DNA of 63,838 nucleotides, the filler included, from a bacterium (GTDB lineage Bacteria > UBA9089 > CG2-30-40-21 > SBAY01), in the NCBI GenBank assembly GCA_040757115.1. It is 15 parts of 15 records of this genome, joined end to end, with 100 filler letters (N's around TTAATTAATTAA, not from the genome) between each part and the next. Parts side by side here need not be neighbours in the genome. Positions count along the whole stretch, not along the records: positions 17,517 to 42,299 come from JBFLYA010000037.1; 14 more parts are not named here. One strand, written 5' to 3'. A model generated the notes under the pieces. It did no database searches. It worked only from the letters and a program-made list of their open reading frames with translations, and was not told where the DNA came from. The stretch's first letter is position 1. Each line of letters begins with the position of its first letter. A program made the translations under genes and the position numbers. Shown here one piece after another: positions 23,100-48,288 of the stretch.

Positions 23100-23128
23100 T
23101 TGACAATAATGGCTTAAAGGGTTATAAT
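23100..23128 (+). promoter_or_regulatory. Consensus sigma-70 promoter of the surface-protein operon
   Basis: TTGACA-17-TATAAT. Confidence 0.8.
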
Positions 23129-23259: not shown

Positions 23260-26200
23260 ATGAAAAGGAAAGATAATATATTAATCTTATGGATAATATT
23301 ACTCATACTTTTAATACCTAAATGTATTAATGCAGAACAATTTCAAGATAGCTTCACTCAGCCAGATGGTCCTGCAAAGAATTGGGAACCTAACCATAGA
23401 TGGGGAGTATGGCAGATTGAGAGTAAAGAATATAGTGGTTGTTCCGCAGCAGATGAACCATGTTATACCTTTACGGGTGATAAAAGATGGACTGATTATA
23501 CCTTTCAAGTAAGATGTAAATTAATAGAGGGTGTTTCTCCTGAAAGAATAGGAATTGTTTTTAGAGCTACTGATCCTAATAATCTATATCGGTTTCGTTT
23601 CTTAGGAGGGACATATCAATGGTTAGATTTATATGTAAGAAAAGAAGGACAATGGACTCAACTTGGTGCCACAAAACCATATACTATTAATTTTAATACA
23701 TGGTATACCTTTAAAGTAGAAATTCAAGATGAAGGTTCGGGTGTAAGGATAAAATGTTATGTTAATGATGTAGAACAAATAAATTATTTAGAGGCACCAA
23801 GAACTTTCTCTTCCGGTAGAATTGGTTTATATAATTGGCAAAGCCATACTCATTTTGATGATGTGATTGTTATCTCCCCCGGAGGTAGTCCTCTATTTGA
23901 AGATACCTTTACAGAGCCAGATGGTCCTGCAGGTAACTGGGAGCCCGTAGAACCTATAGTTAAATGGGAGATCGAAGAGCAAGAGTATAGTGGCTTTGCC
24001 TCTGCAAATCAAGAAGGTTATACCTTTGCAGGGAATACCTCTTGGACTAATTATTCTTATGAGGCAAGATGTAAATTAATAGAAGGAGTCTCCCCAGAGC
24101 GTATAGGAATTGTTTTTAGAGCTACTGATAGATATAATCTCTATCGGTTTCGTTTCTTAGGCGGAAGTTACCAACAATTAGATTTATATGTAAGAAGAAA
24201 TGGTGCGTGGACATATCTTGGCAGGAAACAACCCTATAATCTTAATTTTAATGAGTGGTATACATTTAGAGTTGAAGTCCAAGATGAAGGTGCTGGTGTA
24301 AGAATAAAATGTTATGTTAATAATGTAGAGCAAATAAATGTCCTCGAAAACCCAAAAACATTCTCATCCGGAAGAATTGGGCTATATACTTATCAGAGTC
24401 ATAACCATTTTGATGATGTAAAAGTAACCTCCATTCCTACGGGTACTATTTTATTTGAAGATACCTTTACAGAACCAAATGGTCCTGCAATTAACTGGGA
24501 ATTTGAAGGTATACAACCTATATGGTGGGTTGAAAGTCAGGAGTATAGCGCCTATACATCAAAATGGGAAAGTGCATTCTCCTTTGCAGGAAGAACTACC
24601 TGGTCAGATTATTCATATCAAGCAAGATGTAAATTAATAGAAGGGACATCCCCTGAACGTCTAGGAATTTGTTTTAGAGCTACAGACCAATACAATCTCT
24701 ATCTTTTATACTATATCGGAGGAAGTTATAAACGGTTATATTTATATAGAATAGAAGATGGTTCCTGGAGTAATCTTAGGAATGTATCGTATACCCTTAC
24801 TCCTGATGTCTGGTATACCTTCAAAGTGGAAGTTCAAGATGAAGGTAGTGGCGTAAGGATAAAATGTTATGTTAATGATGTAGAAAGAATAAATTATTTA
24901 GAGTCACCAAGAACTTTCTCTTCCGGAAGAATTGGGTTATATAATTATCAGTGCCATTCACATTTTGATGATGTAATTGTAACCTTATTTAAACCTGTAA
25001 TCAATAGTCTCACTGTAACCCCTGATCCTACTGGAGTGCAGCCAGTAGGTGGCTTAGAGTTTAAAATAGTATTTAGCGAGAGTATGGATACAGGTGTAGA
25101 GCCTACCGTAACCTACGATCCTCAAGGACCTACTGGACCTCAACCATGTACTGGTGGAAGTTGGTCAACTACTACCAATACTAATGATACCTATATTGTC
25201 TACAACAATAATCCTATTATTTCTACTACTGGCGATGGCGTAGCAACTATATTAGTTTCCGGGGCACAGAATTTAGCAGCCGTGGTAATGGATGATGATA
25301 CAACTTATTTCTTCAATATAGATGCGGCTAATAATCCTCCTAATCCACCTACTACTGGATTCTTTCCATCTCAAGGTACTACTTCTACTACACAGACTCC
25401 AACCATAAGATGGAATTATGCCTCTGATCCTGATCCTGCTGATATACCCGATACATTACATTATGTTTTAAGACTTGATGATGATGGGGAGGTTATTACA
25501 AACTACGATTATGAATATACCACATTAGATGGAGTATGCATATCTACAATAACTAATACATTAGCTAATAAGACATATTGGTACTATGCGATAAAGACGG
25601 TTGATGATGAATTAGCAGAATCAAGTTGGTCAACTATTCAAAATTTTTATATTAACGCTCCACCTACAGTCAGTTCAATCATCCCAAATACTGGTGTAAA
25701 TACAGGAACCCTATCTACTACTATTACTGGAACTAACTTCCAATCAGGTGCTACTGCTACCTTAACTCGTGCTGGTCAACCTGATATTATTGGAACTACT
25801 ACATTCATAAGCTCTGGAACACTGACTGCTATATTTGACCTAACAGGTGCACAACCTGGAGTCTGGAGTGTAGTGGTAATAAATCCTGATGGTCAATCAG
25901 GCACCCTGACTGATGGATTTACTATTATCGACGCAAATATTATCGTGACTAAAGATATGATTATTAATCATACATGGGATAGCGGGACAAATACTGTCCC
26001 CGGAGCTACTATAATATATATCATTACATATACTAACAATGGTAATGATACTGCAGGTTCGGTTACTATTACAGATAAACTAATGAATTATGCCAGCTAT
26101 GCTACTAATAGCTTGAGGATAGGAACATCAGGCTCTACTTATGAAAGTGCTACCCCTAAGACAGATGCAAAAGATATAGAATCTGGTGGTAGTGCAGACT

Positions 26201-26295
26201 GGAATGTAAGTAGTTCCCAAGCAGTAACATTTGAACTTGGGAGTATTCCTGTTGGTGCATCAGGCAGGCTTTACTTTAAGATTAGAGTTGACTAA
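23260..26295 (+). CDS. Secreted protein: three DUF1080/ConA-like beta-sandwich repeats, Ig/FN3-like and IPT/TIG domains, C-terminal DUF11; putative fimbrial tip adhesin
   Basis: Signal peptide; three repeats ending FSSGRIGLY...HFDDV; IIVTK...PGATIIYIITYTNNG...TITDKL...RLYFKIRVD. Confidence 0.8.
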   Translation: MKRKDNILILWIILLILLIPKCINAEQFQDSFTQPDGPAKNWEPNHRWGVWQIESKEYSGCSAADEPCYTFTGDKRWTDYTFQVRCKLIEGVSPERIGIVFRATDPNNLYRFRFLGGTYQWLDLYVRKEGQWTQLGATKPYTINFNTWYTFKVEIQDEGSGVRIKCYVNDVEQINYLEAPRTFSSGRIGLYNWQSHTHFDDVIVISPGGSPLFEDTFTEPDGPAGNWEPVEPIVKWEIEEQEYSGFASANQEGYTFAGNTSWTNYSYEARCKLIEGVSPERIGIVFRATDRYNLYRFRFLGGSYQQLDLYVRRNGAWTYLGRKQPYNLNFNEWYTFRVEVQDEGAGVRIKCYVNNVEQINVLENPKTFSSGRIGLYTYQSHNHFDDVKVTSIPTGTILFEDTFTEPNGPAINWEFEGIQPIWWVESQEYSAYTSKWESAFSFAGRTTWSDYSYQARCKLIEGTSPERLGICFRATDQYNLYLLYYIGGSYKRLYLYRIEDGSWSNLRNVSYTLTPDVWYTFKVEVQDEGSGVRIKCYVNDVERINYLESPRTFSSGRIGLYNYQCHSHFDDVIVTLFKPVINSLTVTPDPTGVQPVGGLEFKIVFSESMDTGVEPTVTYDPQGPTGPQPCTGGSWSTTTNTNDTYIVYNNNPIISTTGDGVATILVSGAQNLAAVVMDDDTTYFFNIDAANNPPNPPTTGFFPSQGTTSTTQTPTIRWNYASDPDPADIPDTLHYVLRLDDDGEVITNYDYEYTTLDGVCISTITNTLANKTYWYYAIKTVDDELAESSWSTIQNFYINAPPTVSSIIPNTGVNTGTLSTTITGTNFQSGATATLTRAGQPDIIGTTTFISSGTLTAIFDLTGAQPGVWSVVVINPDGQSGTLTDGFTIIDANIIVTKDMIINHTWDSGTNTVPGATIIYIITYTNNGNDTAGSVTITDKLMNYASYATNSLRIGTSGSTYESATPKTDAKDIESGGSADWNVSSSQAVTFELGSIPVGASGRLYFKIRVD

Positions 26296-26320
26296 AGTAA
26301 TCGTTTGTAGTAATTAATAA

Positions 26321-26541
26321 TATAGCACTTATTAATCGAAATTTGAGCCAGATATGGCTATGGAATTCCAAATCACAAATTCCAAATTCCAAACAAATTC
26401 GAATGACCAAAATTCAAAACATTACTCCCATAGTTTGGTATTTAGTACTTGAAATTTGGTGCTTATTTGAGATTTGATGCTTGAGATTTGGGATTTTTTA
26501 CTTATTCACCCTGAGTAAAATTTTGACTAATAACTGCTATA
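26321..26541. mobile_element. Small inverted-repeat-bounded element filled with heptamer repeats
   Basis: TATAGCACTTATT...AATAACTGCTATA ends (IS630-like appearance); internal AAATTCC/AAATCAC units. Confidence 0.5.
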
Positions 26542-26663
26542 TGGAGTACGAAAACTTGCTTTCGCTTTGCTCAAAGCGGTGGCAAGCCACCGCACTCCCA
26601 AAAGGGAACACACTTTTGCAAAAGCCATAATGCGGTCACTACCAACGAAAGGAGAAAAAAATC

Positions 26664-28226
26664 ATGCCTGACCAAAAATTACTAATATTTTTAATCTTTA
26701 CCACCTTCCTGAATATAGATATTGCTTTTGGAAAAGACAATTCCATGAGTAGCAAGACTAATATTGCCTTGCATAAATCAGTAATCGGTAGTTTTGAACA
26801 CAAAACAAATGCCACTGACGGCAATAATGAGTCTTTAGCTACTTCTCAAGATGTTACTGTATCTTCCCAATATTTAATCATTGACCTGGGCAAGCCTTAT
26901 TACATCAATTTAGTAAGGATATTTTGGGATAAAGAAAGAGTTAGCAGTAACTATCAAATAAAGACAAGCATGGATTTCATCAATTGGACTAAAGTTGCAA
27001 GAGATATGGATGGAACAACGGGTGAAGTAAAAGGGAATATGATTATAAAAGATACATCATGTGAAGGAATAGCTGCTCAATATATACAGCTATTTATTCC
27101 TAAAGGGTTAAGTGGTGTAATTAAAGAAAGCCAAGTAGCAGAATTACAGGTCTTCCCTGCCACTGAAATGAATGTTCAGATTGATGAAATAACCGCTACT
27201 GATATTACGGATAATAGTGTTAAAATTTTGTGGAAAACGAATATAGAAACTACGGGACAGGTACAGTATACTCCTACTTATGAGAATAAGAAGAATATCT
27301 CACTAAGCCTCGCTTCTGAAACTGACCATAACATACGCTTGAAAAACTTACTTCCAGGAACTACCTATTACTATCAAATAACAGCAAAGGATTATTATGG
27401 AAATTTAACTTTATCCGATTCCCATACCTTTACTACTACGGGTATTCCATTACCATTATTCTCAAGTATTGAAGTATCACAAGTATCTGAAACAACTACT
27501 GTTATAAACTGGATAACTAATGTACCAACCACCTCAGAACTTAGGTATGGAACAGATACCAATTATAAAAAAGGTATCTTGATAAATAAAAATCTTCTAC
27601 TTACTCATAATGCAGAGTTGAGTAGTCTTAGACCAAGTACAGTATATCATTTTGAAATAAGTGCAAAAGATGAATTTGGGCATAGAATAGTCTCAAAAGA
27701 TATTACATTTACTACATTAGAGAATAACATTGCCTTAAGAAAGTCAGTAACAGGTACATTTATTCATTGTCCTGATAAAAGATATATTTCACAAAAGACA
27801 GAATTTATCTCTCGTGTGACAGATGACTCAACAAGCTATTTTACAGGCATGGCTACCTCTGGTGATATTACTTTGGAAGACCAATATGTAATCATTGACA
27901 TTGGTAAAAAGTATCCTATTGATAAGATAATTGCCTATTGGCGAAGTTTAGCATATAGTCAAGATTATACCATTAAAGTAAGTTTGGACGGTACTGACTG
28001 GACTATTATTGATACAGGAATTAGTGGTGATGATGGTGTAAATGGTAGGTCTGATACTGGAGATCCAATGAAGATTGTCAGTACACCATGTGATGGAGTG
28101 GAGGCACAGTATGTACAGCTATTTATAGCTAAAGGTAGTGTTTATTACCATAAGCACAAGGAATGGAGATTTGTGCAGTTGATGGAATTAAAGGTCTATG
28201 GTATTTGGAAAGGAGGAGGTGAGTAA
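26664..28226 (+). CDS. Secreted discoidin (F5/8 type C)-FN3-FN3-discoidin protein
   Basis: NIALxKSV...IIDLGK...W...Y.IKxSxDxxxWT twice, flanking two WxTN...H...LxxLxPxTxYxY domains. Confidence 0.8.
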   Translation: MPDQKLLIFLIFTTFLNIDIAFGKDNSMSSKTNIALHKSVIGSFEHKTNATDGNNESLATSQDVTVSSQYLIIDLGKPYYINLVRIFWDKERVSSNYQIKTSMDFINWTKVARDMDGTTGEVKGNMIIKDTSCEGIAAQYIQLFIPKGLSGVIKESQVAELQVFPATEMNVQIDEITATDITDNSVKILWKTNIETTGQVQYTPTYENKKNISLSLASETDHNIRLKNLLPGTTYYYQITAKDYYGNLTLSDSHTFTTTGIPLPLFSSIEVSQVSETTTVINWITNVPTTSELRYGTDTNYKKGILINKNLLLTHNAELSSLRPSTVYHFEISAKDEFGHRIVSKDITFTTLENNIALRKSVTGTFIHCPDKRYISQKTEFISRVTDDSTSYFTGMATSGDITLEDQYVIIDIGKKYPIDKIIAYWRSLAYSQDYTIKVSLDGTDWTIIDTGISGDDGVNGRSDTGDPMKIVSTPCDGVEAQYVQLFIAKGSVYYHKHKEWRFVQLMELKVYGIWKGGGE

Positions 28227-28400
28227 ACTGTAAAATTAACCCCTTAACAGGGATAACATATTTTTGCCTTTTCAAGAAAATAGGCAAAGAGACAAAAAGA
28301 ATCTTAAAAAGAAAGGAGGTAGATAAAAAATGGCAAGGTCGGAAATGGAAAGGAAAAATCTTAAAAAGAAAGGAGGTGATAAAGAAATGCAAAATGCAAA

Positions 28401-29393
28401 ATGCAAAAAGGTTTCTTATTAGCTGTGCTAAGCTTAGGGCTAATGATGATTTTAGCCCCAAAGACAGCAGATGCACAAGTAGGTACCAGTGGTACTACCG
28501 CAGGCTCAGAGATTATCAATGGTACTGATACAGGTACTATTGGTATAGCAGACCAGGCGGGAGACATTGTAGTCACCTATATGGTTGGTAGTGTAGGAAG
28601 AACCTCAACTACTGCATCAGTGTTAACTCGTGTTGTAGAACAGATATACGGTGGAGAATGGGGTACTCTTCCTGAAAATGGGACAGATACACCGGGTGCG
28701 GCAGTAGACTATCTCTATACACTGGAGAATAAAGGTAACGCTGCTGATACCTTTTACCTGTCACTGAATACTACTGGATTGCTAGTCGGCTGGACAGCGG
28801 AGATTCTAAAAGATGGTGTGGCGACGACTACTATTACCTTAGCTGAAGATGCAGAGGGAACATTTACGGTTAGAGTAACCATATCAGGGACGGCAGCAAA
28901 TCTTGAGACAGGCGCGGTGATTGTAACTGGCACAACTACGGATGATGGTGGGACATACACAGTTGGTAATTGGATTTACGGTGGGGCAGATACTCTTACT
29001 CATCGGGGAACAACTACTGCTTTAGCCGCTGTTGTAACCTTAACCAAGAGTATGGAGTATGCTACACCAACAGGGTATCTGGGTAATAACCGCTATGTAC
29101 CAGGTGGAACGATAACCTATATTATCACCTGCTACAATGCTGGTTCTTATACAGCAGGCTCTGTGACAATTACTGACAAGTTACCACTACATACGAGTTA
29201 TGCTACGGGAACATTAAGAATGGGTACTGCAGGTGATACTTACAATACTGCTGGCACGAAGACCGATGGATATGATAACCAAGGTACTTGGGATGCTGAT
29301 TGGAACGATAGTAATCAGATAGTACGATTTGAAATTGACACTATTGAGCCAGCTGAAACAGTAAAACTATACTTTAGAGTGTACATTAAGTAA
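28401..29393 (+). CDS. DUF11-containing secreted protein, putative fimbrial subunit 1
   Basis: Sec signal ending ADA; GTTAGSEIIN N-terminal segment; C-terminal VTLTK...PGGTITYII...TITDKLP...LYFRVYIK. Confidence 0.8.
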   Translation: MQKGFLLAVLSLGLMMILAPKTADAQVGTSGTTAGSEIINGTDTGTIGIADQAGDIVVTYMVGSVGRTSTTASVLTRVVEQIYGGEWGTLPENGTDTPGAAVDYLYTLENKGNAADTFYLSLNTTGLLVGWTAEILKDGVATTTITLAEDAEGTFTVRVTISGTAANLETGAVIVTGTTTDDGGTYTVGNWIYGGADTLTHRGTTTALAAVVTLTKSMEYATPTGYLGNNRYVPGGTITYIITCYNAGSYTAGSVTITDKLPLHTSYATGTLRMGTAGDTYNTAGTKTDGYDNQGTWDADWNDSNQIVRFEIDTIEPAETVKLYFRVYIK

Positions 29394-29684
29394 TTGAGAG
29401 TTAAAAGTAGATAGTTAAAAAAAAACTCATAACTTATATAACTCTATACTTGTGTCTGCTGTATGAATGGTAGAATTGTCTTCCCAAAAGGATAAAAGTG
29501 TCTAAAACTATCTTTGTGCATCAAAGGACAAATATAAAGGTAGGACTATCTCTAAGTGTAACTTTTTAGAGGCATAATTGCGACCTGTGCAGTTAAGATA
29601 AACCACGAAGGACACAAAGCCCACGAAGAAAAAATATGGTAACTATTCAGTAATTATTCCACCACAGATTAACACGGATAAATA

Positions 29685-29778
29685 GCAGAGGACAGAGGGC
29701 AGAAGGCAGAGGGCAGAGGACAGAGGGCAGAAGGCAGAGGGCAGAAGGCAGAGGGCAGAAGGCAGAGGGCAGAGGACA
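29685..29778 (+). repeat. Heptamer tandem array (GCAGAGG/GCAGAAG/ACAGAGG)n
   Basis: About 13 units directly visible, downstream of a GTAACTATTCAG end at 29639. Confidence 0.9.
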
Positions 29779-29997
29779 ACAGGAGAAAAAACCTTTAGCC
29801 TAATTACGGACACGGATACCGGACACGCCTCACAGATTACACACAGAGAGTAGAATGTTTATCCATTTTAACCCCTTATAAATAAAAGGGATAATATATA
29901 TTTTGCCATTGTCAAAAAGAAAGGAGGTAGATAAAAAATGGCAATTTCAAAAAGACAAAATGGGGAAAATCTTAAAAAGAAAGGAGGTGATAAAGGA

Positions 29998-30963
29998 ATG
30001 CAAAATGCAAAATGCAAAATGCAAAAAGGTTTCTCATTAGCTGTGCTAAGCTTAGGGCTGATGATGGTTTTAGCACCAGAGACAGTTAATGCACAAGTAG
30101 GGACGAGTGGGACGACTGCAAATACACAGATACTTAACATGGCAACTGCTACCTATGTAATAGGTGGTAACACCAGAACTACCACCACGAATATCTCTAT
30201 CACAGTAGGACAGATATACGGTGGTAGCTGGACTGTCCCGGCAGATAAGGATGGTATACCCAATGGAACGGTAGAGTATATCTATATTCTAGATAACGAG
30301 GGGAATGCCGCAGATACCTTTAACTTAACCTTAGGTACTACCAGTTTGCCAAGCGGTTGGACTGCCGAAATTCGAGTAAATGGTGTTGCGACGACTACTC
30401 TTACCTTAGCTGAAGATGCTGTTGGCACATTTGCAGTCAGAGTATCAATATCAGCTACGGCACAAAATGGTGATAAAGGGACGGTAAGTATAACAACAAC
30501 TACTACTGACGATGGTGGGACATATACGGTTGGTAATTGGATATACGGCGGGTTAGACTTGCTCAGCGACACAAGAACAACTACAGCACAGTCAGCAGTG
30601 ATAACTCTGACCAAAACTATTTATTCATACGGAACACCAACAGGATATGAAGGTAGTAACTCATATATACCAGGTGGGACGATAACTTACATGATTACCT
30701 ACCGCAATGAGGGTGCAGCCACAGCAACAGATGTGACAATTACTGATATAATCCCAGCTCATACAACTTATGCTCCGGAGACAATGAGAATAGGGACTTC
30801 AGGCGCTACCTATGAAAGTGCTAATGTCGAAGATGATGATGATGGAGAATCACCACCTTGTGCAAATTGGAACATTACCACTACTGGTGCAGTAACATTT
30901 AAACTGGGTGATGTTAGACCTAATGCAGAGGGAAGATTATTCTTTAGAGTATACATCAAGTAG
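29998..30963 (+). CDS. DUF11-containing secreted protein, putative major fimbrial subunit 2 (alternative in-frame starts 29938, 30019)
   Basis: Signal ending VNA; GTTANTQILNMATATY; ITLTK...TITDIIP...LFFRVYIK. Confidence 0.82.
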   Translation: MQNAKCKMQKGFSLAVLSLGLMMVLAPETVNAQVGTSGTTANTQILNMATATYVIGGNTRTTTTNISITVGQIYGGSWTVPADKDGIPNGTVEYIYILDNEGNAADTFNLTLGTTSLPSGWTAEIRVNGVATTTLTLAEDAVGTFAVRVSISATAQNGDKGTVSITTTTTDDGGTYTVGNWIYGGLDLLSDTRTTTAQSAVITLTKTIYSYGTPTGYEGSNSYIPGGTITYMITYRNEGAATATDVTITDIIPAHTTYAPETMRIGTSGATYESANVEDDDDGESPPCANWNITTTGAVTFKLGDVRPNAEGRLFFRVYIK

Positions 30964-31439
30964 TTAAAAGATGAGGGTTAAAAAAGTCATAGCTGGTGTA
31001 TGCAGTATCAAAACTATAGTTGTGTCCAATTTGTAGAGAGATTAGTGTGCGTAAAATAGTATTGTAGGTCGAGATTTATATCTTGACAAAAAGAGAGATT
31101 GTCGATGTTAGAAAAATCGACTTAGAGTGGAGGACTGCGTGCAATGAAGGGACAAAGGTGTCTTTGTATCCAGAAGAGGCTTGGAGTGTCTTTGAGAAGC
31201 TACCATTGTGCTTGTAAGAGGATGTAATGAAGGAAAAAGGGAAGAAGATGAAAAAAATCCCCTTTCCCCTAATTTCCCCTTACACACAAAGAGTAGAATG
31301 TTTATCCATTTAACCCCTTATAAATAAAAGGGATAATATATATTTTGCCATTGTCAAGAAGAAAGGAGGTAGATAAAAAATGGCAATTTCAAAAAAACAA
31401 AATGTAGAAAATTTTAGAAAGAAAGGAGGTGATAAAGAA

Positions 31440-32417
31440 ATGCAAAATGCAAAAAGCAAAATGCAAAAAGGTTTCTTATTAGCTGTGCTAAGCTTAGGGC
31501 TGATGATGGTTTTAGCACCAGAGACAGTTAATGCACAAGTAGGGACGAGTGGGACGACTGCAAATACACAGATACTTAACATGGCAACTGCTACCTATGT
31601 AATAGGTGGTAACACCAGAACTACCACCACGAATATCTCTATCACAGTAGGACAGATATACGGTGGTAGCTGGACTGTCCCGGCAGATAAGGATGGTATA
31701 CCCAATGGAACGGTAGAGTATATCTATACTCTAGATAACAAGGGGAATGCCGCAGATACCTTTAACTTAACCTTAGGTACTACCAGTTTGCCAAGTGGTT
31801 GGACTGCCGAAATTCGAGTAAATGGTGTTGCGACGACTACTATTACCTTAGCTGAAGATGCTGTTGGCACATTTGCAGTCAGAGTATCAATATCAGCTAC
31901 GGCACAAAATGGTGATAAAGGGACGGTAAGTATAACAACAACTACTACTGCCGATGGTGGGACATATACGGTTGGTAATTGGATATACGGTGGATTAGAC
32001 TTGCTCAGCGACACAAGAACAACTACAGCACAGTCAGCAGTGATAACTCTGACCAAAACTATTTATTCATACGGAACACCAACAGGATATGGAGGTAGTA
32101 ACTCATATGTACCAGGTGGGACGATAACTTACATGATTACCTACCGCAATGAGGGTGCAGCCACAGCAACAGATGTGACAATTACTGATATAATTCCAGC
32201 TCATACAACTTATGCTCCGGAGACAATGAGAATAGGGACTTCAGGCGCTACCTATGAAAGTGCTGAATATGATAAGGCTGATGATGATGATGATGGTTCA
32301 GAATCACCACCTTGTGCAAATTGGAACATTACCACTACTGGCGCAGTAACATTTAAACTGGGTGATGTTAGACCTAATGCAGAGGGAAGATTATTCTTTA
32401 GAGTATACATCAAGTAG
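31440..32417 (+). CDS. DUF11-containing secreted protein, putative major fimbrial subunit 3 (near-identical paralog)
   Basis: Same architecture as subunit 2; differs mainly in the acidic loop (NVEDDDDG vs EYDKADDDDDGS). Confidence 0.82.
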   Translation: MQNAKSKMQKGFLLAVLSLGLMMVLAPETVNAQVGTSGTTANTQILNMATATYVIGGNTRTTTTNISITVGQIYGGSWTVPADKDGIPNGTVEYIYTLDNKGNAADTFNLTLGTTSLPSGWTAEIRVNGVATTTITLAEDAVGTFAVRVSISATAQNGDKGTVSITTTTTADGGTYTVGNWIYGGLDLLSDTRTTTAQSAVITLTKTIYSYGTPTGYGGSNSYVPGGTITYMITYRNEGAATATDVTITDIIPAHTTYAPETMRIGTSGATYESAEYDKADDDDDGSESPPCANWNITTTGAVTFKLGDVRPNAEGRLFFRVYIK

Positions 32418-32808
32418 TTAAAAGATGAGGGTTAAAAAAGTCATAACTGGTGTATGCAGTATCAAAACTATAGTTGTGTCCAATTTGTAGAGAGCTTAGT
32501 GTGCCTAAAATAGTATTGGAGGTCGAGATTTATATCTTGACAAAAAGAGAGATTGTCGATGTTAGAAAAATCGACTTAGAGTGGAGGACTGCGTGCAATG
32601 AAGGGACAAAGGTGTCTTTGTATCCAGAAGAGGCTTGGAGTGTCTTTTAGAAGCTACCATTGTGCTTGTAAGAGGATGTAATGAAGGAAAAAGGGAAAAA
32701 AGATTAACAAATATATAAACACAGATTATTTATAGATTTATCAGTGTTAATCTGGGTGAATCTGTGGTTAAATTTACCACGGTCATAAAAAAGGATAGGT
32801 TAAAGAAA

Positions 32809-34014
32809 ATGAAAAAGACAAAATTCTATCAGGTAATGATAACTATTTGTACTATATTAGTATCTTTGCAAGCTCCTATTGTATCTGCTCAGCTTACTCC
32901 AGCAGGAACTATCGTTACCAATGGTGGAGATAATGTTATCTTAAGTTATAATAATAAAGAACATAATGTCTGCAATGTTGTAAGTTTTCCAGTAGGACAG
33001 GTGTATGAACTCTCACTTACTAATCTCACAGGTGTAGGGTTAAGTATTTCTCCTGGAGAGACAGTTTATTATAGCTATACCGTGAAGAATACAGGAAATG
33101 GAACTGATACTATACACTTATCTTGTGAGATAACCCAAGGCTCTGGAGGAACCTGGACTGCACGATTAGTTTCATCTAATCCAGGAACTGGTTCTATTCC
33201 TCCTTCTATAAATATTCCACCAGATACTACTTATTCTTATTATATCAAAGTTACCTCTCCTATAACTTCAACTCCAGAAGACTACTGTGTTATCAGAGCA
33301 ATAGCAAAGAATTCTTATTATCATACCCATAACAGTAGCGATGGTTGGCCAATAGGAGCAAGTGCTGATATTCAAACTGATGCTATAACTACTACGATAT
33401 TACCTATCGGAATTATAAGTAAAATAGTGTTAAGTAGTAATATTACAACAATACAAGTGGATGCACCATCAACCTTATTTACTATTCAGACTCAAGATAA
33501 GTATAATAATCCTGTTAATGTTGGTACTGATACTTTAATTTGTTTAAATTCTACCTCTCCAACGGGTAAATTTGCTACTTCAAATATAGGGCCATGGGAT
33601 GATACACTATTAGTTATTATTCCTAATGGAAGTAATACTGTCAGTTTCTATTATAAAGATACCAATAATGGTATCTTCATCATTACTGCTACAGAATATC
33701 CAGATATGGGTTGGATTGAGGGCAAAAGACAGATAGTCATTGTTGTAGGAGACATTAGCAAAGTAACTAATTATCCCAATCCGTTTGATATGACGACAAT
33801 CAACAGTATCTCTATTGGACCATTACCACTTAATACACAGGTTAAAATATATACCTTAGATTTGAGATTAGTTCGGACATTATACGAGCAAAATGGAGAG
33901 GTGATTTGGGATGGTAGAAATGAAGGAGGAGAGAAGGTAGCAAGTGGAATTTATATCTATTTAGTTGAGTCTGATAAGGGACATAAGGTCGGTAAGATAA
34001 CCTTAATAAAATAA
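32809..34014 (+). CDS. Secreted protein with pilin-like N-terminal region and C-terminal T9SS-type A/FlgD-Ig sorting-like domain; putative fimbrial base
   Basis: TPAGTIVTN...LSY and YTVKNTGNGTDT shared with the subunits; NYPNPF...VKIYT...WDGRNEGGEKVASGIYIY...GKITLIK. Confidence 0.75.
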   Translation: MKKTKFYQVMITICTILVSLQAPIVSAQLTPAGTIVTNGGDNVILSYNNKEHNVCNVVSFPVGQVYELSLTNLTGVGLSISPGETVYYSYTVKNTGNGTDTIHLSCEITQGSGGTWTARLVSSNPGTGSIPPSINIPPDTTYSYYIKVTSPITSTPEDYCVIRAIAKNSYYHTHNSSDGWPIGASADIQTDAITTTILPIGIISKIVLSSNITTIQVDAPSTLFTIQTQDKYNNPVNVGTDTLICLNSTSPTGKFATSNIGPWDDTLLVIIPNGSNTVSFYYKDTNNGIFIITATEYPDMGWIEGKRQIVIVVGDISKVTNYPNPFDMTTINSISIGPLPLNTQVKIYTLDLRLVRTLYEQNGEVIWDGRNEGGEKVASGIYIYLVESDKGHKVGKITLIK

Positions 34015-34037
34015 ATTATTAAAAGGGGGTTTTAAAA

Positions 34038-35339
34038 ATGAGAAGAATAGTAATTTGTTGTATGTTGGTAGTACTGCTTTTAGTATTAGTAGCAGAGACT
34101 TATGCTGGGAGTGCTGGTAGTACTGGTGGAGCTTTTTTAAGGATTGGGATGGGTGCAAGAGCAATTGGTATAGGTAGTGCATTTACCTCAATAGCAGATG
34201 ATGTAAGTAGCATCTATTGGAATCCTGCAGGGTTGAGCAAGTTAAAATATAAAGAGGCATTATTTATGCATACCCAATGGGTGACAGATATTAAAAGTGA
34301 GTATTTAGCTCAAGCTCAACCACTTAAATATGGTGGTTATGGAGTTAGTCTACTATATTTATACACCACTGATATAAGACGTAATAAGTTAGGAAAAGAA
34401 AGTGGTAGTTTTAATAATTATGACTCCTGCGTTACATTAGCATACGGTTATAAGCTAAATTCTAATATTTCATTAGGCTTAAGTTTAAAAATTATCTCTG
34501 GCTGTCTTGATACTACCAAAGCAAATTCCTACTGCATAGATATTGGTGGATTATATAAAAGAGATAATTTAAGATTAGGTGCAGTAATACAAAATTTAGG
34601 TTTAGGAATGAAATTTCGAGATGAAAGTGACCCTATGCCAATTAATTTTAAGTTAGGTGCGGGATATAAATTATTAGATAAAAACCTTACCTTAGCCGTA
34701 GATATTGATAAACCCATAGATGATAACATTAGCATTAAGTTAGGTACAGAATATTCATATAAAGATACAATTATAGGCAGGATAGGGTATCAAATCGGTA
34801 GAGATGTAGGTGGTTTAAGTACAGGTATAGGATTTAAATTCAGGGATTATAAATTAGATTATGCCTTTGTACCCTATGATAAATTGGGTAATACTCATCG
34901 CATTTCACTTACTATGCAATTTGCTCCTAAAATAGAAGAAAAGCCACCTATCCCAAAAGTAATACCACCTATTCCCAAAGATCTAAAACCTACACCTGTT
35001 CCAGAAGTAATAGAAATGCAGCCAACTGTAATTGTTTATAATTGGAGAGGTATAATAACACCAGATGGAGATGGGATTGAGGATATGGCTACTTTTAATA
35101 TTAGAGTTGGAGGATTTAAATACCCAATAGAAACCTGGGAATTAAATATTACTACTACTGAAGATAAATCAGTCAAAATATTTGTCGGGTCAGGAAAACC
35201 GCCATTTACTATTGTATGGGATGGCAGAAACAATGAAGGTCAAATAGTACCTATTGGAACATATTTCTATATTTTATATATAAAAGATAGTGCTGGTAAT
35301 AAATTTTGCTCAGATAAACAGAGTGTTATAATAAGATAG
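34038..35339 (+). CDS. PorV/PorQ-like (UPF0164) outer-membrane beta-barrel with Pro-rich linker and C-terminal CHU_C/FlgD-like domain
   Basis: FLRIGMGARAIGIGSAF...IYWNPAGL, DYAFVPYDKLGNTHRISL; ITPDGDGIED...WDGRN. Confidence 0.82.
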   Translation: MRRIVICCMLVVLLLVLVAETYAGSAGSTGGAFLRIGMGARAIGIGSAFTSIADDVSSIYWNPAGLSKLKYKEALFMHTQWVTDIKSEYLAQAQPLKYGGYGVSLLYLYTTDIRRNKLGKESGSFNNYDSCVTLAYGYKLNSNISLGLSLKIISGCLDTTKANSYCIDIGGLYKRDNLRLGAVIQNLGLGMKFRDESDPMPINFKLGAGYKLLDKNLTLAVDIDKPIDDNISIKLGTEYSYKDTIIGRIGYQIGRDVGGLSTGIGFKFRDYKLDYAFVPYDKLGNTHRISLTMQFAPKIEEKPPIPKVIPPIPKDLKPTPVPEVIEMQPTVIVYNWRGIITPDGDGIEDMATFNIRVGGFKYPIETWELNITTTEDKSVKIFVGSGKPPFTIVWDGRNNEGQIVPIGTYFYILYIKDSAGNKFCSDKQSVIIR

Positions 35340-35730: not shown

Positions 35731-35774
35731 TTTTTTCTATTGACAATTTATGATTTTAGGGTATAATTTTAAGT

Positions 35775-45629: not shown

Positions 45630-46121
45630 TTATATTTGTGGTTCTACCAAACATTTCTCAAAATCGACAACAAGATATTTTTTGCCTTTTTGGATTACTT
45701 TATGTCCCTCCTTTTCTAAAAGTTTCTTTTGACTTTCGATTCCACCAGGATATTTTTCATTTATTATCCCATCAACTTTTAATGTTCGCCAATAAGGAGT
45801 GGTATTTTTTTCTCCTTTACTTATTGACTCTGTTGCTGCTTCAGCGGCAATTCGAGCAAAAATCCCAGTGGTCATTGGACAAGCAATTGTGGTATTGTGT
45901 TTTTTTGCAAGAGCGTTTCGAATTTCATTAATTGTAACAATCTTTCCATTAGGAACCTCTCTCATAATTTCATCAACTTCAATTGGCGCCGGGATTACCA
46001 TTGTATCACCAATTTTTTTCGTTCCCCATTTACCGACCATTTTTGGCGGTATTTTTATTGTTTTCGGAAGCCCTTTGCTATCCTCCAATTTTTCTTTCCA
46101 GGATTTGCGTTTTTTAGACAT
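45630..46121 (-). CDS. MGMT/alkyltransferase-like DNA-binding protein (cassette)
   Basis: VPNGKIVTI...PYWRTLK, the family's PxxR motif without the catalytic Cys. Confidence 0.75.
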   Translation of the reverse strand: MSKKRKSWKEKLEDSKGLPKTIKIPPKMVGKWGTKKIGDTMVIPAPIEVDEIMREVPNGKIVTINEIRNALAKKHNTTIACPMTTGIFARIAAEAATESISKGEKNTTPYWRTLKVDGIINEKYPGGIESQKKLLEKEGHKVIQKGKKYLVVDFEKCLVEPQI

Positions 46122-46194
46122 ATTTTTCACCTCTATATAGATTATCTTTGACCTTTAAATATTCTCCTTTCCCCAAGCAAGGGTTCGGAATTTC

Positions 46195-46540
46195 ATATAA
46201 CGGGGTGCGGATGAGCGAAGTGCCCCGAAAGGGGCATAGGTTCGACAGGCTCACTATAAGTTTTGGCTTCAGCCCCGACCCGCAAGCGCGCCCCACCCTG
46301 TGTGTTCCCCCGCCACCGCTGCTGATAGCCAAAATGACGCTTCGCCACTTCCGATTTCAAGAAAAACTTCCGAACTACATCTGGCTGAAGCCTTTGGCTC
46401 ATCTGTATCCCAATAACCAAAATGCGAACTCAAAGGGTTCGAGCGAAGCGTCATTTTGGTTATCGTGTTGCGGATAAAAGAAGTTAGCCGGTAGGTGAAT
46501 TTGGGGAAATCTTTGATTTCCCTTTTATCCGCTGTTAGCT
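46195..46540 (-). other. Giant attC-like structured element, copy 1
   Basis: ATATAAC...GTTAGCT ends; internal stems A/A', B/B', C/C'; homologous to 47488-47839. Confidence 0.65.
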
Positions 46541-46549
46541 GAACCACCT

Positions 46550-47470
46550 TCAACTCGTACCAAACCGATTCCGGAGCGGAAAGTATATGATCCCCTCTTG
46601 CGCAGCCTTTTGAATCTTGAGATCTAATGCATCGATGAGAGAAATATGGCCCTCTAGAATTAAGCTCAAGTCTGAACCATCAAACAATACTATGTTGGAG
46701 CTGACCCCTCGAGTAAACTCCGAGATGACTTCTGGTCGAAAGCCAACGATGGAGAAGAAAATACCTCTTGTACTCTCTAGCTTTTTGTCGACTTTCGTCT
46801 TGAAAGCAGCGAGGTCTGCTTCTGAAGGAGGCTCGGCTCGCCATCTGGCCTCGACGAGATAATCAAAACCCTTGAATTCGAAGTAGCCATCGATCTGCTC
46901 CGTGGCCGTCCGATAGGGGCGGCGGTAAGAAATTTCATGCGCCTCAAAGAGCTCAGCAAGGATGTCCTCAAGCCCATAGCCTCGCTTTTGCGGATCATCT
47001 CGACTCATAACCATAGAGGCAAACGTGTTTCGTAGCTCCTCCATTTTCTGTGCTCTGGCTGCGAGCGCAGCCTGCTTACGGCGGGCTTCCTGTGCCCTTT
47101 GATCTGCAGCGCTCTTTTCTTCTTCAGCGACAAGTTTCTGTGTAATGGCAAGCTCCTTTAACCACTTTAAAGCCTTTAGCGCAGCATTTCGATCCGGAAC
47201 CGATTCGTCAGGTACATTCCGAAGATTGCAAAGCTCTGACACAATCCTCCGCTGGATCAGAAAACCCTCTTCATCTAAGGCTTCCAATTCAGCAAGGATG
47301 TGTCTAATAATCTTGTATTTGGATTCATGAGCGAAGCGGTCATAGATCTCAGGTGGCACGCCAGCGGATAGGAGAAAGGAACGGAAGGGATCCTTCAACC
47401 AAAATGCCTTCCCACATACCTGTACAATAGCCTCTTTTATTTCGAATGGGAGACGGTTTATCATTAACAT
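46550..47470 (-). CDS. Mrr-like (PD-(D/E)XK) restriction endonuclease domain protein (cassette)
   Basis: RGYGLEDIL...EQIDGYFEFKGFDYLVEARW...GIFFSIVGF; visibly GC-richer than the host; start moved to ATG 47470, since the longer ORF runs into the repeat. Confidence 0.78.
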   Translation of the reverse strand: MLMINRLPFEIKEAIVQVCGKAFWLKDPFRSFLLSAGVPPEIYDRFAHESKYKIIRHILAELEALDEEGFLIQRRIVSELCNLRNVPDESVPDRNAALKALKWLKELAITQKLVAEEEKSAADQRAQEARRKQAALAARAQKMEELRNTFASMVMSRDDPQKRGYGLEDILAELFEAHEISYRRPYRTATEQIDGYFEFKGFDYLVEARWRAEPPSEADLAAFKTKVDKKLESTRGIFFSIVGFRPEVISEFTRGVSSNIVLFDGSDLSLILEGHISLIDALDLKIQKAAQEGIIYFPLRNRFGTS

Positions 47471-47487
47471 ACCTACCTTTGCGGTTC

Positions 47488-47839
47488 GTCTAACGGGATG
47501 CGGATGAGCGAACTGCCCCTTTAGGGGCATAGGTTCGACAGGCTCACTACAAGTTTTGGCTTCAGCCCCGATCCACTTCGTGCGACCCACCCTGTAGGTT
47601 CCCCGGCGCCGCTGATAGCCGAAGTGACGCTTCGCAACTTCCCTTTTTCAAAGATTCCCTTTGAGTTACATAAAGCTTCCGCCTTTCGCTCATCCGCATC
47701 CCCGACCCGCCTGAGGCGGGTGCCCCGCAAAATGGAGCGAAGCGACATTTTGGTTATCGGTTTTGTGTATCTGACATTTTTCTGGTGCATAGCGGAAGAA
47801 AAATGGGGCTGTAGCCCTTTTAGATACACAATGTTAGGC
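47488..47839 (-). other. Giant attC-like structured element, copy 2
   Basis: GTCTAAC...GTTAGGC ends; same stem order as copy 1 with a different C/C' sequence. Confidence 0.65.
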
Positions 47840-48288
47840 GAAGTCTCGATCATTTATTCCCCAAAAAACCAAATTTTGTTTACATGACAAACATGACATT
47901 AAAACCTATTTTTTGTCATTATTGTCATTTTCTACTTTAAATAATCTTATATAAGCTCGAAACATCTTATCTGTAACCTCATACTTCCCCCTCTCTACTT
48001 TACTTAATANNNNNNNNNNNNNNNNNNNNNNNNNNNNNNNNNNNNNNNNNNNNTTAATTAATTAANNNNNNNNNNNNNNNNNNNNNNNNNNNNNNNNNNN
48101 NNNNNNNNNCTAATAATTAATTTTTTAATTTTATTTTCAACCCCCACCCCCCAATCTTGGGGGCTTTAATAAGGAATTAGGATTGTGGCATTCAAAATGA
48201 CCAACAATATATATTATACGAGGACGATGAAAATAGGGAGGGAACACACCCCTAACCCCTCTCAAGAGGGGAATACAACCCCCTGACC

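Follow-up and report, generated by a model that had tools for sequence, protein, structure and literature searches.

A candidate head-to-tail fibre of split CLIPPER (DUF11) domains in an uncultured groundwater bacterium

This study concerns a cluster of seven co-directional genes on the + strand of a stretch of DNA from an uncultured groundwater bacterium (assembly GCA_040757115.1), at positions 23260-35339. The whole stretch analysed, 63,838 nucleotides (nt) long with the filler between its 15 parts included, is called the window; the cluster lies in its part from record JBFLYA010000037.1. On balance, the cluster probably encodes a fibre or stalk built head to tail by donor strands from CLIPPER (DUF11) domains that are split between polypeptides, with joints that are probably locked here by Lys-Asn bonds, and moored to a PorV-like barrel via the C-terminal domain (CTD) of a base protein. 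The C-terminal CLIPPER domain is truncated, proteins having only the acceptor or only the donor part of the split domain recur in relatives, and the gene order is conserved. The head-to-tail contact is a prediction from structure modelling. The genes are as follows.

23260..26295, + strand: lectin-like tip protein, 1011 residues; after a signal peptide come three 3-keto-disaccharide-hydrolase/DUF1080-like modules and Ig-like linkers, and the C-terminus is a truncated DUF11/CLIPPER domain
26664..28226, + strand: secreted F5/8C-FN3-FN3-F5/8C protein, 520 residues (F5_F8_type_C 87.8 bits, fn3 45.2 bits)
28401..29393, + strand: subunit A, 330 residues, with a long-form donor, a middle Ig-like domain and a truncated CLIPPER acceptor
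29998..30963, + strand: subunit B1; open reading frame (ORF) from 29938, likely starts 29998 or 30019
31440..32417, + strand: subunit B2; ORF 31380-32417, same parts as B1
32764..34014, + strand: base protein, 416 residues; ORF start GTG 32764, probable ATG 32809
34038..35339, + strand: outer-membrane barrel of the PorV/PorQ family (NF033709), 433 residues

An earlier reading of the sequence (the original prediction) had placed the genes that it listed at or near these coordinates; it had passed over 26664-28226, the best conserved member of the cluster.

In the proposed mechanism, the products would be "register-shifted" slices of a CLIPPER adhesin stalk that form a surface fibre or stalk. 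The mature N-terminus of a subunit would correspond to the last two strands of a complete CLIPPER domain, including the I-x-N-x-A motif, and would be followed by a middle Ig-like domain and then by a CLIPPER domain lacking those strands. According to the modelling, the N-terminal strand of one subunit may enter the open C-terminal domain of the next subunit (donor-strand complementation). The inserted Asn, placed beside Lys and Asp, would then form an autocatalytic Lys-Asn isopeptide that locks the joint, and chains would be longer than a few subunits. Since the tip protein has an acceptor only, it would stand at the distal end, and the base, having a donor only, would end the chain. Finally, the CTD of the base, which is of the kind that serves type IX secretion (the T9SS), might be gripped by the neighbouring PorV/PorQ-like barrel, as T9SS cargo is by cognate PorP/SprF/PorV-type shuttles.

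Truncated acceptor domains and N-terminal donors

According to the accessible part of PMC12617251, the DUF11 domain, now renamed CLIPPER, makes an intramolecular isopeptide bond with a Lys-Asp-Asn triad (K715, D748 and N806 in PDB 9IFR). A reference profile of the complete repeat was derived from 1795 repeat units of long multi-repeat proteins, collected by an exhaustive HMMER search; keeping a maximum of 3 units per protein left 395 units and 149 profile positions. In these 395 complete repeats, the Lys is conserved at 87%, the Asp at 89% and the tail Asn at 93%, and the consensus contains a "TvTftVtVd" strand, then "..ItNtAtv.." and then one further strand.

In alignments with this profile, the tip and the three subunits reach only position 103-106 of 149 with their C-terminal domains, 0-3 residues of protein remaining. 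The tail Asn corresponds to position 118 and is located 12 positions beyond the end of the truncated domains. The Lys and the catalytic Asp are kept, as TLTK and TITD in the subunits and as IIVTK and TITD in the tip; each of the three subunits ends in FRVYIK. Hence, the original prediction that the paralogs terminate right after F(R/K)VYIK without an Asn strand is borne out. In a complete CLIPPER domain, the Asn strand (I-x-N-x-A) is part of the same domain and the bond is intramolecular; the tip and the subunits do not have the strand there. The domain assignment itself is supported by family models. The Pfam DUF11 model (PF01345, cut-off 24.6 bits) gives 29.6 for the tip, 32.6 for B1, 32.1 for B2 and 24.1, just below the cut-off, for subunit A; with TIGR01451 (cut-off 24), all four are above the cut-off (26.1, 44.6, 45.0 and 32.6, respectively). 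In the subunits, the Pfam match spans only profile positions 10-67 of 114.

The profile was also searched against the window's ORFs and those of loci L001-L012 and L036-L046 (L numbers denote loci of relatives and G numbers genomes, G001 being the nearest genome), and 44 domain rows scored above 15 bits. Thirty-two of these 44 rows, including those of the window's tip and three subunits, end at position 103-106 with 0-3 residues left. The other 12 are one early-stopping alignment (L044), three near-identical subunits with a 159-residue extension, three repeats internal to a single long protein, four rows of a divergent family that has neither Lys nor Asp, and one partial alignment (L038 1214-1756). 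Because 32 rows end alike and the complete internal repeats of G001 proteins run to position 134-139 in the same search, the incomplete acceptor is a family trait and not an assembly artefact. The proteins of L040 and L042 (G001), considered as acceptors, were not counted: their divergent C-terminal Ig domain has neither Lys nor Asp and is followed by 31-36 further residues.

In the tip protein, the acceptor occupies residues 892-1011 (nt 25933-26292). The protein has no match to the profile of donor plus middle domain and lacks a donor strand; it thus is acceptor-only, as had been proposed.

The subunits B1 and B2 are 97% identical to each other, and each is 58-59% identical to subunit A. Numbered from 30019, B1 is made up of a signal peptide (1-25), a donor hairpin (35-63, with ILN40MATATY), a middle Ig-like domain (~66-192) and the truncated CLIPPER acceptor (193-314), in which Lys199 and Asp243 are found. 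The candidate starts 30019 and 31461 of B1 and B2 match the start of subunit A, and the starts 29998 and 31440, those of the original prediction, sit 3' of a GGAGG box. The mature N-termini of B1 and B2 carry "..TQILNMATATYVIGGNTRTTTTNISITV..". In subunit A, the donor has a long form (EIIN, a loop of ~15 residues and IVVTY, within mature residues 26-66), which is in the same frame as that of B1/B2 and interrupted by the loop; its acceptor corresponds to residues 201-330, with Lys216 and Asp259. The signal peptides end in A-x-A type sites without Cys. The FRVYIK ends of the subunits carry neither an LPXTG motif nor a membrane anchor.

In the base protein, a signal peptide and a donor "TIVTNGGDNVILSY" (TIVTN...LSY, nt ~32893-32964) precede a middle domain that is a homologue of the subunits' one, an Ig-like region for which modelling was poor, and a T9SS type A CTD; an acceptor is absent. 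The CTD (nt 33754-34011) scores 23.1 bits with TIGR04183, barely above the cut-off of 23, and residues 330-415 also match the PorZ and PorU models in their CTD parts (E 7.3e-14 and 4e-6, respectively). The protein read from 32809 is thus donor-only with a sorting-like domain, in agreement with the initial reading.

The base, its barrel and the relatives of the cluster

The gene that follows that of the base encodes, as announced, a PorV-like barrel: NF033709 gives 197.5 bits for a cut-off of 90, and the T9SS_PorQ (111.7 vs. 220) and PorV (89 vs. 250) models both stay below their cut-offs. A barrel (residues 29-295) is followed by a Pro-rich linker and by a C-terminal CHU_C/FlgD-Ig-like domain. 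The barrel gene also comes after the base gene in L002, L003, L004, L006 and L009/L010. Shuttles of PorP/SprF type are known to hold CTD cargo to which they are genetically linked (PMC9143113 and PMC12618676, in the parts accessible). By analogy, the barrel is presumed to be the cognate shuttle or anchor of the base CTD.

The F5/8C-FN3 protein has neither donor nor acceptor. It is recovered by phmmer with E values of 1.5e-56 to 6.7e-115 in L002, L003, L006, L008 and L009-L011; the E value is 0 in G001, and the protein is also present in G002 and G021. A role in assembly, akin to that of a chaperone, or as an accessory lectin is conceivable for it.

Six further distinct loci keep at least parts of the order tip - F5/8C-FN3 - subunit - base - barrel, and four of them, L002, L003, L009/L010/L011 (with G002) and G021, have all of it. 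In L004, L006 and L008, the order is partial or interrupted by the end of a contig, and in G001 the genes are distributed over two contigs. The gene order that the original prediction suggested looking for in other genomes is thus found, and its succession of tip, shaft, base and barrel fits both with the modelled head-to-tail pairing and with the acceptor-only and donor-only proteins that recur in this order. In L009-L011, a 440-residue ORF stands between the tip and the F5/8C-FN3 genes; it matches none of the cluster proteins or profiles, was treated as an insertion, and is presumably a cytoplasmic regulator (AlbA_2-like). Locus L004 (DYDG01000139.1) is titled as a Marinifilum sp. metagenome-assembled genome (MAG); its match coordinates equal those of G004:C99, and G004 belongs to the same order as G001, so that the label is probably mis-binned or mis-assigned.

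In seven further loci from genomes and metagenomes, the truncated domain of acceptor-only proteins is always at the extreme C-terminus. The heads that precede it vary, with propellers, a glycoside-hydrolase-like head and giants of 1739 to >2198 residues. The donor-only proteins of relatives carry a CTD.

The family is rare: a word-indexed search of 5.8 billion proteins found 7 of its members. Among the best 150 of 9177 HMMER matches, there are five full-length relatives and one fragment, the rest being multi-repeat DUF11 proteins. Pattern scans gave seven loci in species genomes and five in metagenomes of the Joint Genome Institute. The donor plus middle profile matches 11 of the 24 genomes of G001's candidate phylum (9/17 of the high-quality ones; 3/8 families), and one matching genome contains a contig named Candidatus Desantisbacteria MAG. 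Look-alikes in the ESM Atlas, with scores of 0.92-0.95, are leads only; they are DUF11 proteins of 300-900 residues from Gemmatimonadota, Pseudomonadota, Acidobacteriota and others.

Some relatives depart from the arrangement of the window. A sole subunit of 485 residues, found in L009/L010/L011 (7965-9422), L057 (9204-10661) and P0013, continues after its truncated acceptor with a 159-residue C-terminal extension. We take this extension to be DUF1566/Lcl-like, in which case a lectin-like module would be displayed on each shaft unit. A second type of system (L043 in G001:C1, L044 in G001:C204, L062 in G009:C294) associates a propeller/Kelch-headed module, an acceptor-only "cap" of 153-164 residues and a donor-CTD base. 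A third type (L038 in G001:C105) is composed of a tip, a minimal subunit of 180 residues and a base, and has textbook I-[TV]-N-T-A donors. Finally, orphan subunit paralogs occur in the Desantisbacteria MAG (L001 113-1690 and 2862-4130; L005 1-756 and 1811-2662), with near-identical genes for ~525-residue proteins on both sides. These genes, presumably of AAA-ATPase/PD-(D/E)XK type, suggest that the orphan subunit genes may be inside a repeated or mobile unit.

Predicted pairing of subunits and proposed nature of the joint

Two copies of mature B1 were modelled with ESMFold2, using an alignment of 16 rows, in three runs with 3 controls. The confidence value ipSAE was 0.71, 0.67 and 0.71, and the best of the 3 controls reached 0.00; in calibration, the mark was reached by 20/30 proteins solved as same-chain pairs and by 1/23 solved as single chains. 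Contacts agreed at 93% or more between runs, and the partner had a predicted local distance difference test (pLDDT) value of at least 88. The modelled interface is head-to-tail, residues 29-66 (plus 96 and 164-176) of copy 2 facing residues 192-249, 299 and 311-314 of copy 1, with donor strand 38-49 (including Asn40) of one copy in the C-terminal domain of the other. The closest modelled pairs are 243-42, 242-42/44, 238/239-46 and 195-44/46. Hence, the donor strand would run antiparallel to strand 236-243 and adjoin the Lys199 strand. Asn40, Lys199 and Asp243 are all listed as interface residues; from the register, Asn40 would lie beside both others. The original prediction expected a dimer model to place the donor strand in the neighbour's C-terminal domain together with these three residues, and set against this a subunit completing itself; the two-copy model gave the head-to-tail pairing. 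Modelling thus favours pairing in trans: the result is an open head-to-tail pair, although self-completion would have satisfied both copies.

The monomer models, both from shallow alignments, agree weakly with pairing in trans. In that of the subunit (alignment of 11 rows), residues 26-40 have pLDDT <50 and residues 41-60 form strands at 63-70. In that of the base (10 rows), residues 19-64 are at <50 and the blocks across 71-170 average 75-90. The middle domains average 75-93 per 10-residue block. Two minimal relatives, L038 1214-1756 in G001 (180 residues) and L003 2993-3559 (188 residues), have the donor hairpin joined to the acceptor without a middle domain. In the former, the joining linker is of ~4 residues, equal to the spacing between successive domains of tandem arrays; with the geometry of tandem Ig arrays, such a linker would not be expected to let the donor strand fold back.

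Several points weigh against the proposed fibre, and they are considered here together with the alternatives on which they bear. To begin with, the likeness of the window's donors to the canonical last strand is at motif level and without statistical support. By eye, the short donor form resembles the last two strands of complete repeats. However, the isolated N-terminal segments match no Pfam family, hhalign gives a probability of 1.7% for 22 donors vs. complete repeats and aligns a different region, and the tail-profile scores of the window's three donor types are reached by 106, 230 and 218 of 300 shuffles. Two of 19 donors stand out against shuffles (2/300 each), the L006 base protein and the 180-residue minimal subunit of L038 (ITNTAELEY). 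An iterated profile of the "tail" segment is weak as well, with 17, 24 and 38 domains over three rounds. The claim that an Asn strand sits at the mature N-terminus thus stands for the presence of the sequences, and its identity with the canonical last strand is a resemblance of motif. A sequence search of solved structures with the subunit and the family profile gave 0 matches even at E 1 and E 10. Foldseek (PDB) and VIA-align, run with the subunit monomer model, return generic tandem-Ig, PapD-like and macroglobulin-like folds, mostly for the middle domain 66-192, whose Z of 9-10 to PapD-like Ig folds indicates a common fold only. 9IFR is absent among the match rows shown, which are uninformative on the acceptor domain. 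Moreover, the two-copy model may recall the complete CLIPPER fold, its ipSAE is a confidence value and the geometry of the triad is deduced from it. Lastly, a Kelch/propeller head precedes an internal donor-middle-acceptor module in L043 6410-8287, L044 1759-3927, L062, L063 and L065, and such proteins fit self-completion as well as a cap-adhesin-base chain.

These data leave a small place, which we owe to the propeller/Kelch relatives with internal donors, for a rather improbable account in which no strand is exchanged between proteins. In that account, the hairpin would complete its own domain, as in a circularly permuted CLIPPER with an inserted domain, or would belong to the middle domain, the truncated domain being stable by itself; the products would then be independent surface or cargo proteins that simply have modules in common. 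Donors whose likeness to the tail is not significant, donor-like segments internal to proteins with propeller heads and the strands predicted for residues 41-60 in the monomer all suit it. In contrast, with both options open, the two-copy model chose pairing in trans (0.71 vs. 0.00), and acceptor-only and donor-only proteins would stay incomplete without exchange. The ~4-residue linker of L038 1214-1756 and the base donor region, at pLDDT <50 beside a confident middle domain, also argue for exchange.

The second point concerns the covalent lock. No subunit acceptor row examined lacks the Lys or the Asp, and the donor Asn is invariant in 10/10 aligned base homologues. In subunits, the donor residue is Asn in the window, G001, L006, G021 and some others, and it is Ser in L001-L005, L008-L011, P0124 and P0044, where the acceptor Lys and Asp are kept. 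In these Ser-donor systems, the subunit joints are therefore not Lys-Asn bonds at that position. In three distinct Ser-donor loci (L002/L008, L003 and L009-11/L057), the acceptor of the tip or adaptor that would receive this donor lacks the Lys and sometimes the Asp as well; where donors have Asn and the tip is known, in three loci (window, G001 and L006), both residues are retained in the tip. L003 combines both states: its upstream tip has Lys and Asp, its 188-residue adaptor has an Asn donor and an acceptor without Lys/Asp, and its major subunit has a Ser donor. Loss of the tip Lys alongside Ser donors is what would be expected if selection acted on a cross-link between specific partners. 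However, the Ser-donor genomes G002-G006 all belong to one genus (g2), so that this covariation amounts to about one evolutionary event.

Hence, a Lys-Asn bond is likely in the window's system, and the lock is certainly not universal in the family, since one genus has Ser at that position in its subunits. An alternative that we regard as unlikely is donor-strand complementation without covalent joints, Lys and Asp being relics of CLIPPER or stabilisers. The Ser donors and the tips devoid of Lys agree with it. So does the stability of strand exchange alone, since oligomers of the BsaA variant N35A resist sodium dodecyl sulfate until heated (PMC11580942, accessible part). Against it stand the Lys and Asp of every subunit acceptor row and the Asn of all aligned base donors. 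Tip Lys loss that tracks Ser donors is, in addition, expected under triad selection where both partners have the triad.

The third point concerns export. The tip and the subunits carry only Sec signal peptides and no CTD, and no export route was identified. G001 encodes dozens of proteins with a CTD-like C-terminal domain as well as PorU-like C25 domains. Its 1997-residue ORF scores 100, 54 and 49 bits with the SprA model TIGR04189, below the cut-off of 200, and Pfam gives no SprA; a search for GldM in G001 gave no match, the controls being silent as well, and the GldK matches are generic. With positive controls, G001 has no match for sortase and 0 matches for usher (PF00577; E. coli control) and for PapD-like chaperone (PF00345). 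One may guess that the chain forms in the periplasm, that the base caps it, and that the base CTD then takes the chain through an SprA-like channel. All these statements at the level of the genome are based on G001, with which the window has 41% of its sampled words in common.

Strand exchange could also be real and serve another architecture. G001 encodes at least six more secreted proteins, orphans whose C-terminus is a truncated domain with Lys and Asp (L036, L037, L038 1858-5133, L039 and two in L041) and about four donor-only proteins. A short covalent display stalk might thus be envisaged, in which a cargo is linked by zero to few adaptors to an anchor, as a natural "Tag/Catcher" for varied acceptor-tagged cargo on CTD-anchored donors. 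This reading seems improbable to us. The differing heads of the acceptor-ended proteins, their excess over donor-only proteins and the small three-part loci L038, L043 and L062 are in line with it. Conversely, the three subunit genes of the window, two of them 97% identical, suggest a need for high dosage, and a subunit that pairs with itself in the model sets no limit to chain length. Returning to the fibre of split CLIPPER domains, a wider generalisation is possible but tentative: a natural, hitherto unrecognised "Tag/Catcher" class of fibres in diderms, self-locking without chaperone, usher or sortase, whose donor-only base would, by its T9SS-type CTD, both export the completed chain and moor it to a PorV-like barrel of its own, and onto whose anchors acceptor-tagged proteins encoded throughout the genome could plug covalently.

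Genomic setting, known systems and significance

The cluster is located in housekeeping surroundings, with yidC and jag upstream and a TamB-like gene, a GT2 glycosyltransferase and an amidase-like protein downstream. A promoter-like site precedes it:

23100..23128, + strand: promoter-like site TTGACA-17-TATAAT, 12/12 match to the consensus, ~130 nt 5' of the tip gene

Across the region, 44 promoter-like sites were found vs. 50.9 expected, that is, without enrichment. Another perfect consensus match, TTGACA-16-TATAAT at 35740-35767, is directly 5' of the TamB-like gene, which suggests that this gene is transcribed apart from the fibre cluster. The TamB-like gene, given as adjacent by the original prediction, does stand 3' of the barrel gene at 35775. 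As a member of the system it was rejected: it does not adjoin the cluster in L002, L003 and L009, it has its own consensus promoter, and it is probably unrelated to the fibre system. Family scans of 8 cluster and 10 flanking proteins gave no match to sortase, usher, PapD-like or type IV pilus families, which agrees with the absence of sortase, usher and type IV pilus genes noted at first.

Other features of the window were recorded. The 600-nt spacer 5' of B1 contains a GCAGAGG tandem repeat at 29685-29778 (13 copies; a 28-nt unit 3.4x), and no such array was reported upstream of B2. The 5' ends of B1 and B2 carry a heptanucleotide repeat, AATGCAA, in ~4.3 copies (29997-30026 and 31438-31468), which encodes "NAKCKMQ"; a change in copy number would shift the frame or the start, and could thus act as a phase-variation switch. 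Positions 46001-48000 have a G+C content of 0.468 vs. ~0.35 elsewhere, and a 346-residue ORF located there, at 46550-47590 (- strand), is without a match in Pfam. A search for Rfam families over the whole window gave none. Two DNA runs from one groundwater metagenome study contain all or part of the stretch; no RNA sequencing run among those listed contains it.

The proposed fibre shares features with several known systems. The CLIPPER domains of adhesins (PDB 9IFR; PMC12617251, accessible part) belong to the same family, have the same Lys and Asp-x-(L/I)-P motif and are likewise stalk modules of surface adhesins; here, the domain stops before the Asn strand, which is found at the N-terminus of another polypeptide, so that the bond would be between molecules. 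In the BsaA/TasA-family fibres of Clostridium perfringens, as is proposed here, an N-terminal strand enters the neighbour's sheet and a spontaneous Asn-acid-Lys isopeptide forms without sortase (PMC11580942). However, as described in the accessible part of that article, BsaA has a TasA/camelysin fold and a Glu catalyst, belongs to a Gram-positive organism with SipW and type IV pilus-associated secretion, and has neither a tip/base division nor an outer-membrane anchor. No TasA/camelysin family is found in the subunits, for which the Pfam scan lists only DUF11-related and other Ig-like families. The archaeal threads of Sulfolobus acidocaldarius (Saci_0406) have donor-strand complementation and proposed inter-subunit isopeptides, without a known sortase. 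They differ in that Asn57 bonds the N-terminal amine of subunit n+2, and they are archaeal, heavily glycosylated and, in the text accessible, not reported as DUF11 (PMC9715654).

T9SS cargo encoded beside shuttle barrels (type B CTD with PorP/SprF; PorU-PorV; PorZ-PorQ) resembles the association of a CTD protein with a PorV/PorQ-family barrel (PMC9143113 and PMC12618676, accessible parts). Here, in contrast, the anchored protein would be the foot of a multi-protein fibre and the barrel has an extra C-terminal Ig-like domain. With the chaperone-usher pili (type 1, P), the system has in common an acceptor-only tip adhesin, subunits with an N-terminal donor strand, a terminating base subunit and, in the model, an incomplete Ig fold completed by the N-terminal strand of a neighbour; it differs by the absence of usher and PapD-like chaperone in the cluster and in G001, by another fold and by joints that are presumed covalent. 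The type V pili of Bacteroidota (FimA/Mfa1) are polymers that a diderm builds by strand exchange; they are divided into tip, shaft and anchor and are linked to T9SS. In type V, the pilins are lipoproteins that need proteolytic activation, and the donated strand is C-terminal; in the present case, the signal peptides lack a lipobox Cys, a match to the FimA family is absent, and the donors are N-terminal. Finally, the SpyTag/SpyCatcher and SnoopTag/SnoopCatcher pairs consist of a peptide strand with a reactive residue and a truncated Ig-like domain with Lys and a catalytic acid, and were made in the laboratory from CnaB-type domains, whereas in the present system a CnaA-like CLIPPER domain would have been split naturally.

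The designation "new fimbrial system" thus overstated the novelty of the principle. Strand exchange with a spontaneous isopeptide lock is already in print for BsaA (PMC11580942), and donor-strand complementation with proposed inter-subunit isopeptides for the threads (PMC9715654), both as described in the accessible parts of these articles. A full-text literature search turned up neither an account of a split DUF11 pilus nor one of pili in this phylum; the supplementary tables of PMC12617251 and PMC11580942 might list truncated domains.

If confirmed, this would be the first fibre of a two-membrane bacterium built by donor-strand exchange with a spontaneous isopeptide lock, and the first case of the widespread CLIPPER/DUF11 domain acting between molecules in nature. 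It would also raise the question of how a covalent polymer crosses the outer membrane when its subunits carry no export signal, to which the single T9SS-type domain of the terminating subunit may be the answer. The short donors and compact acceptors, as natural counterparts of engineered ligation pairs, could serve as new orthogonal tools. Moreover, the finding, once confirmed, would attach a concrete function to proteins of a candidate phylum from groundwater that has hardly been studied.

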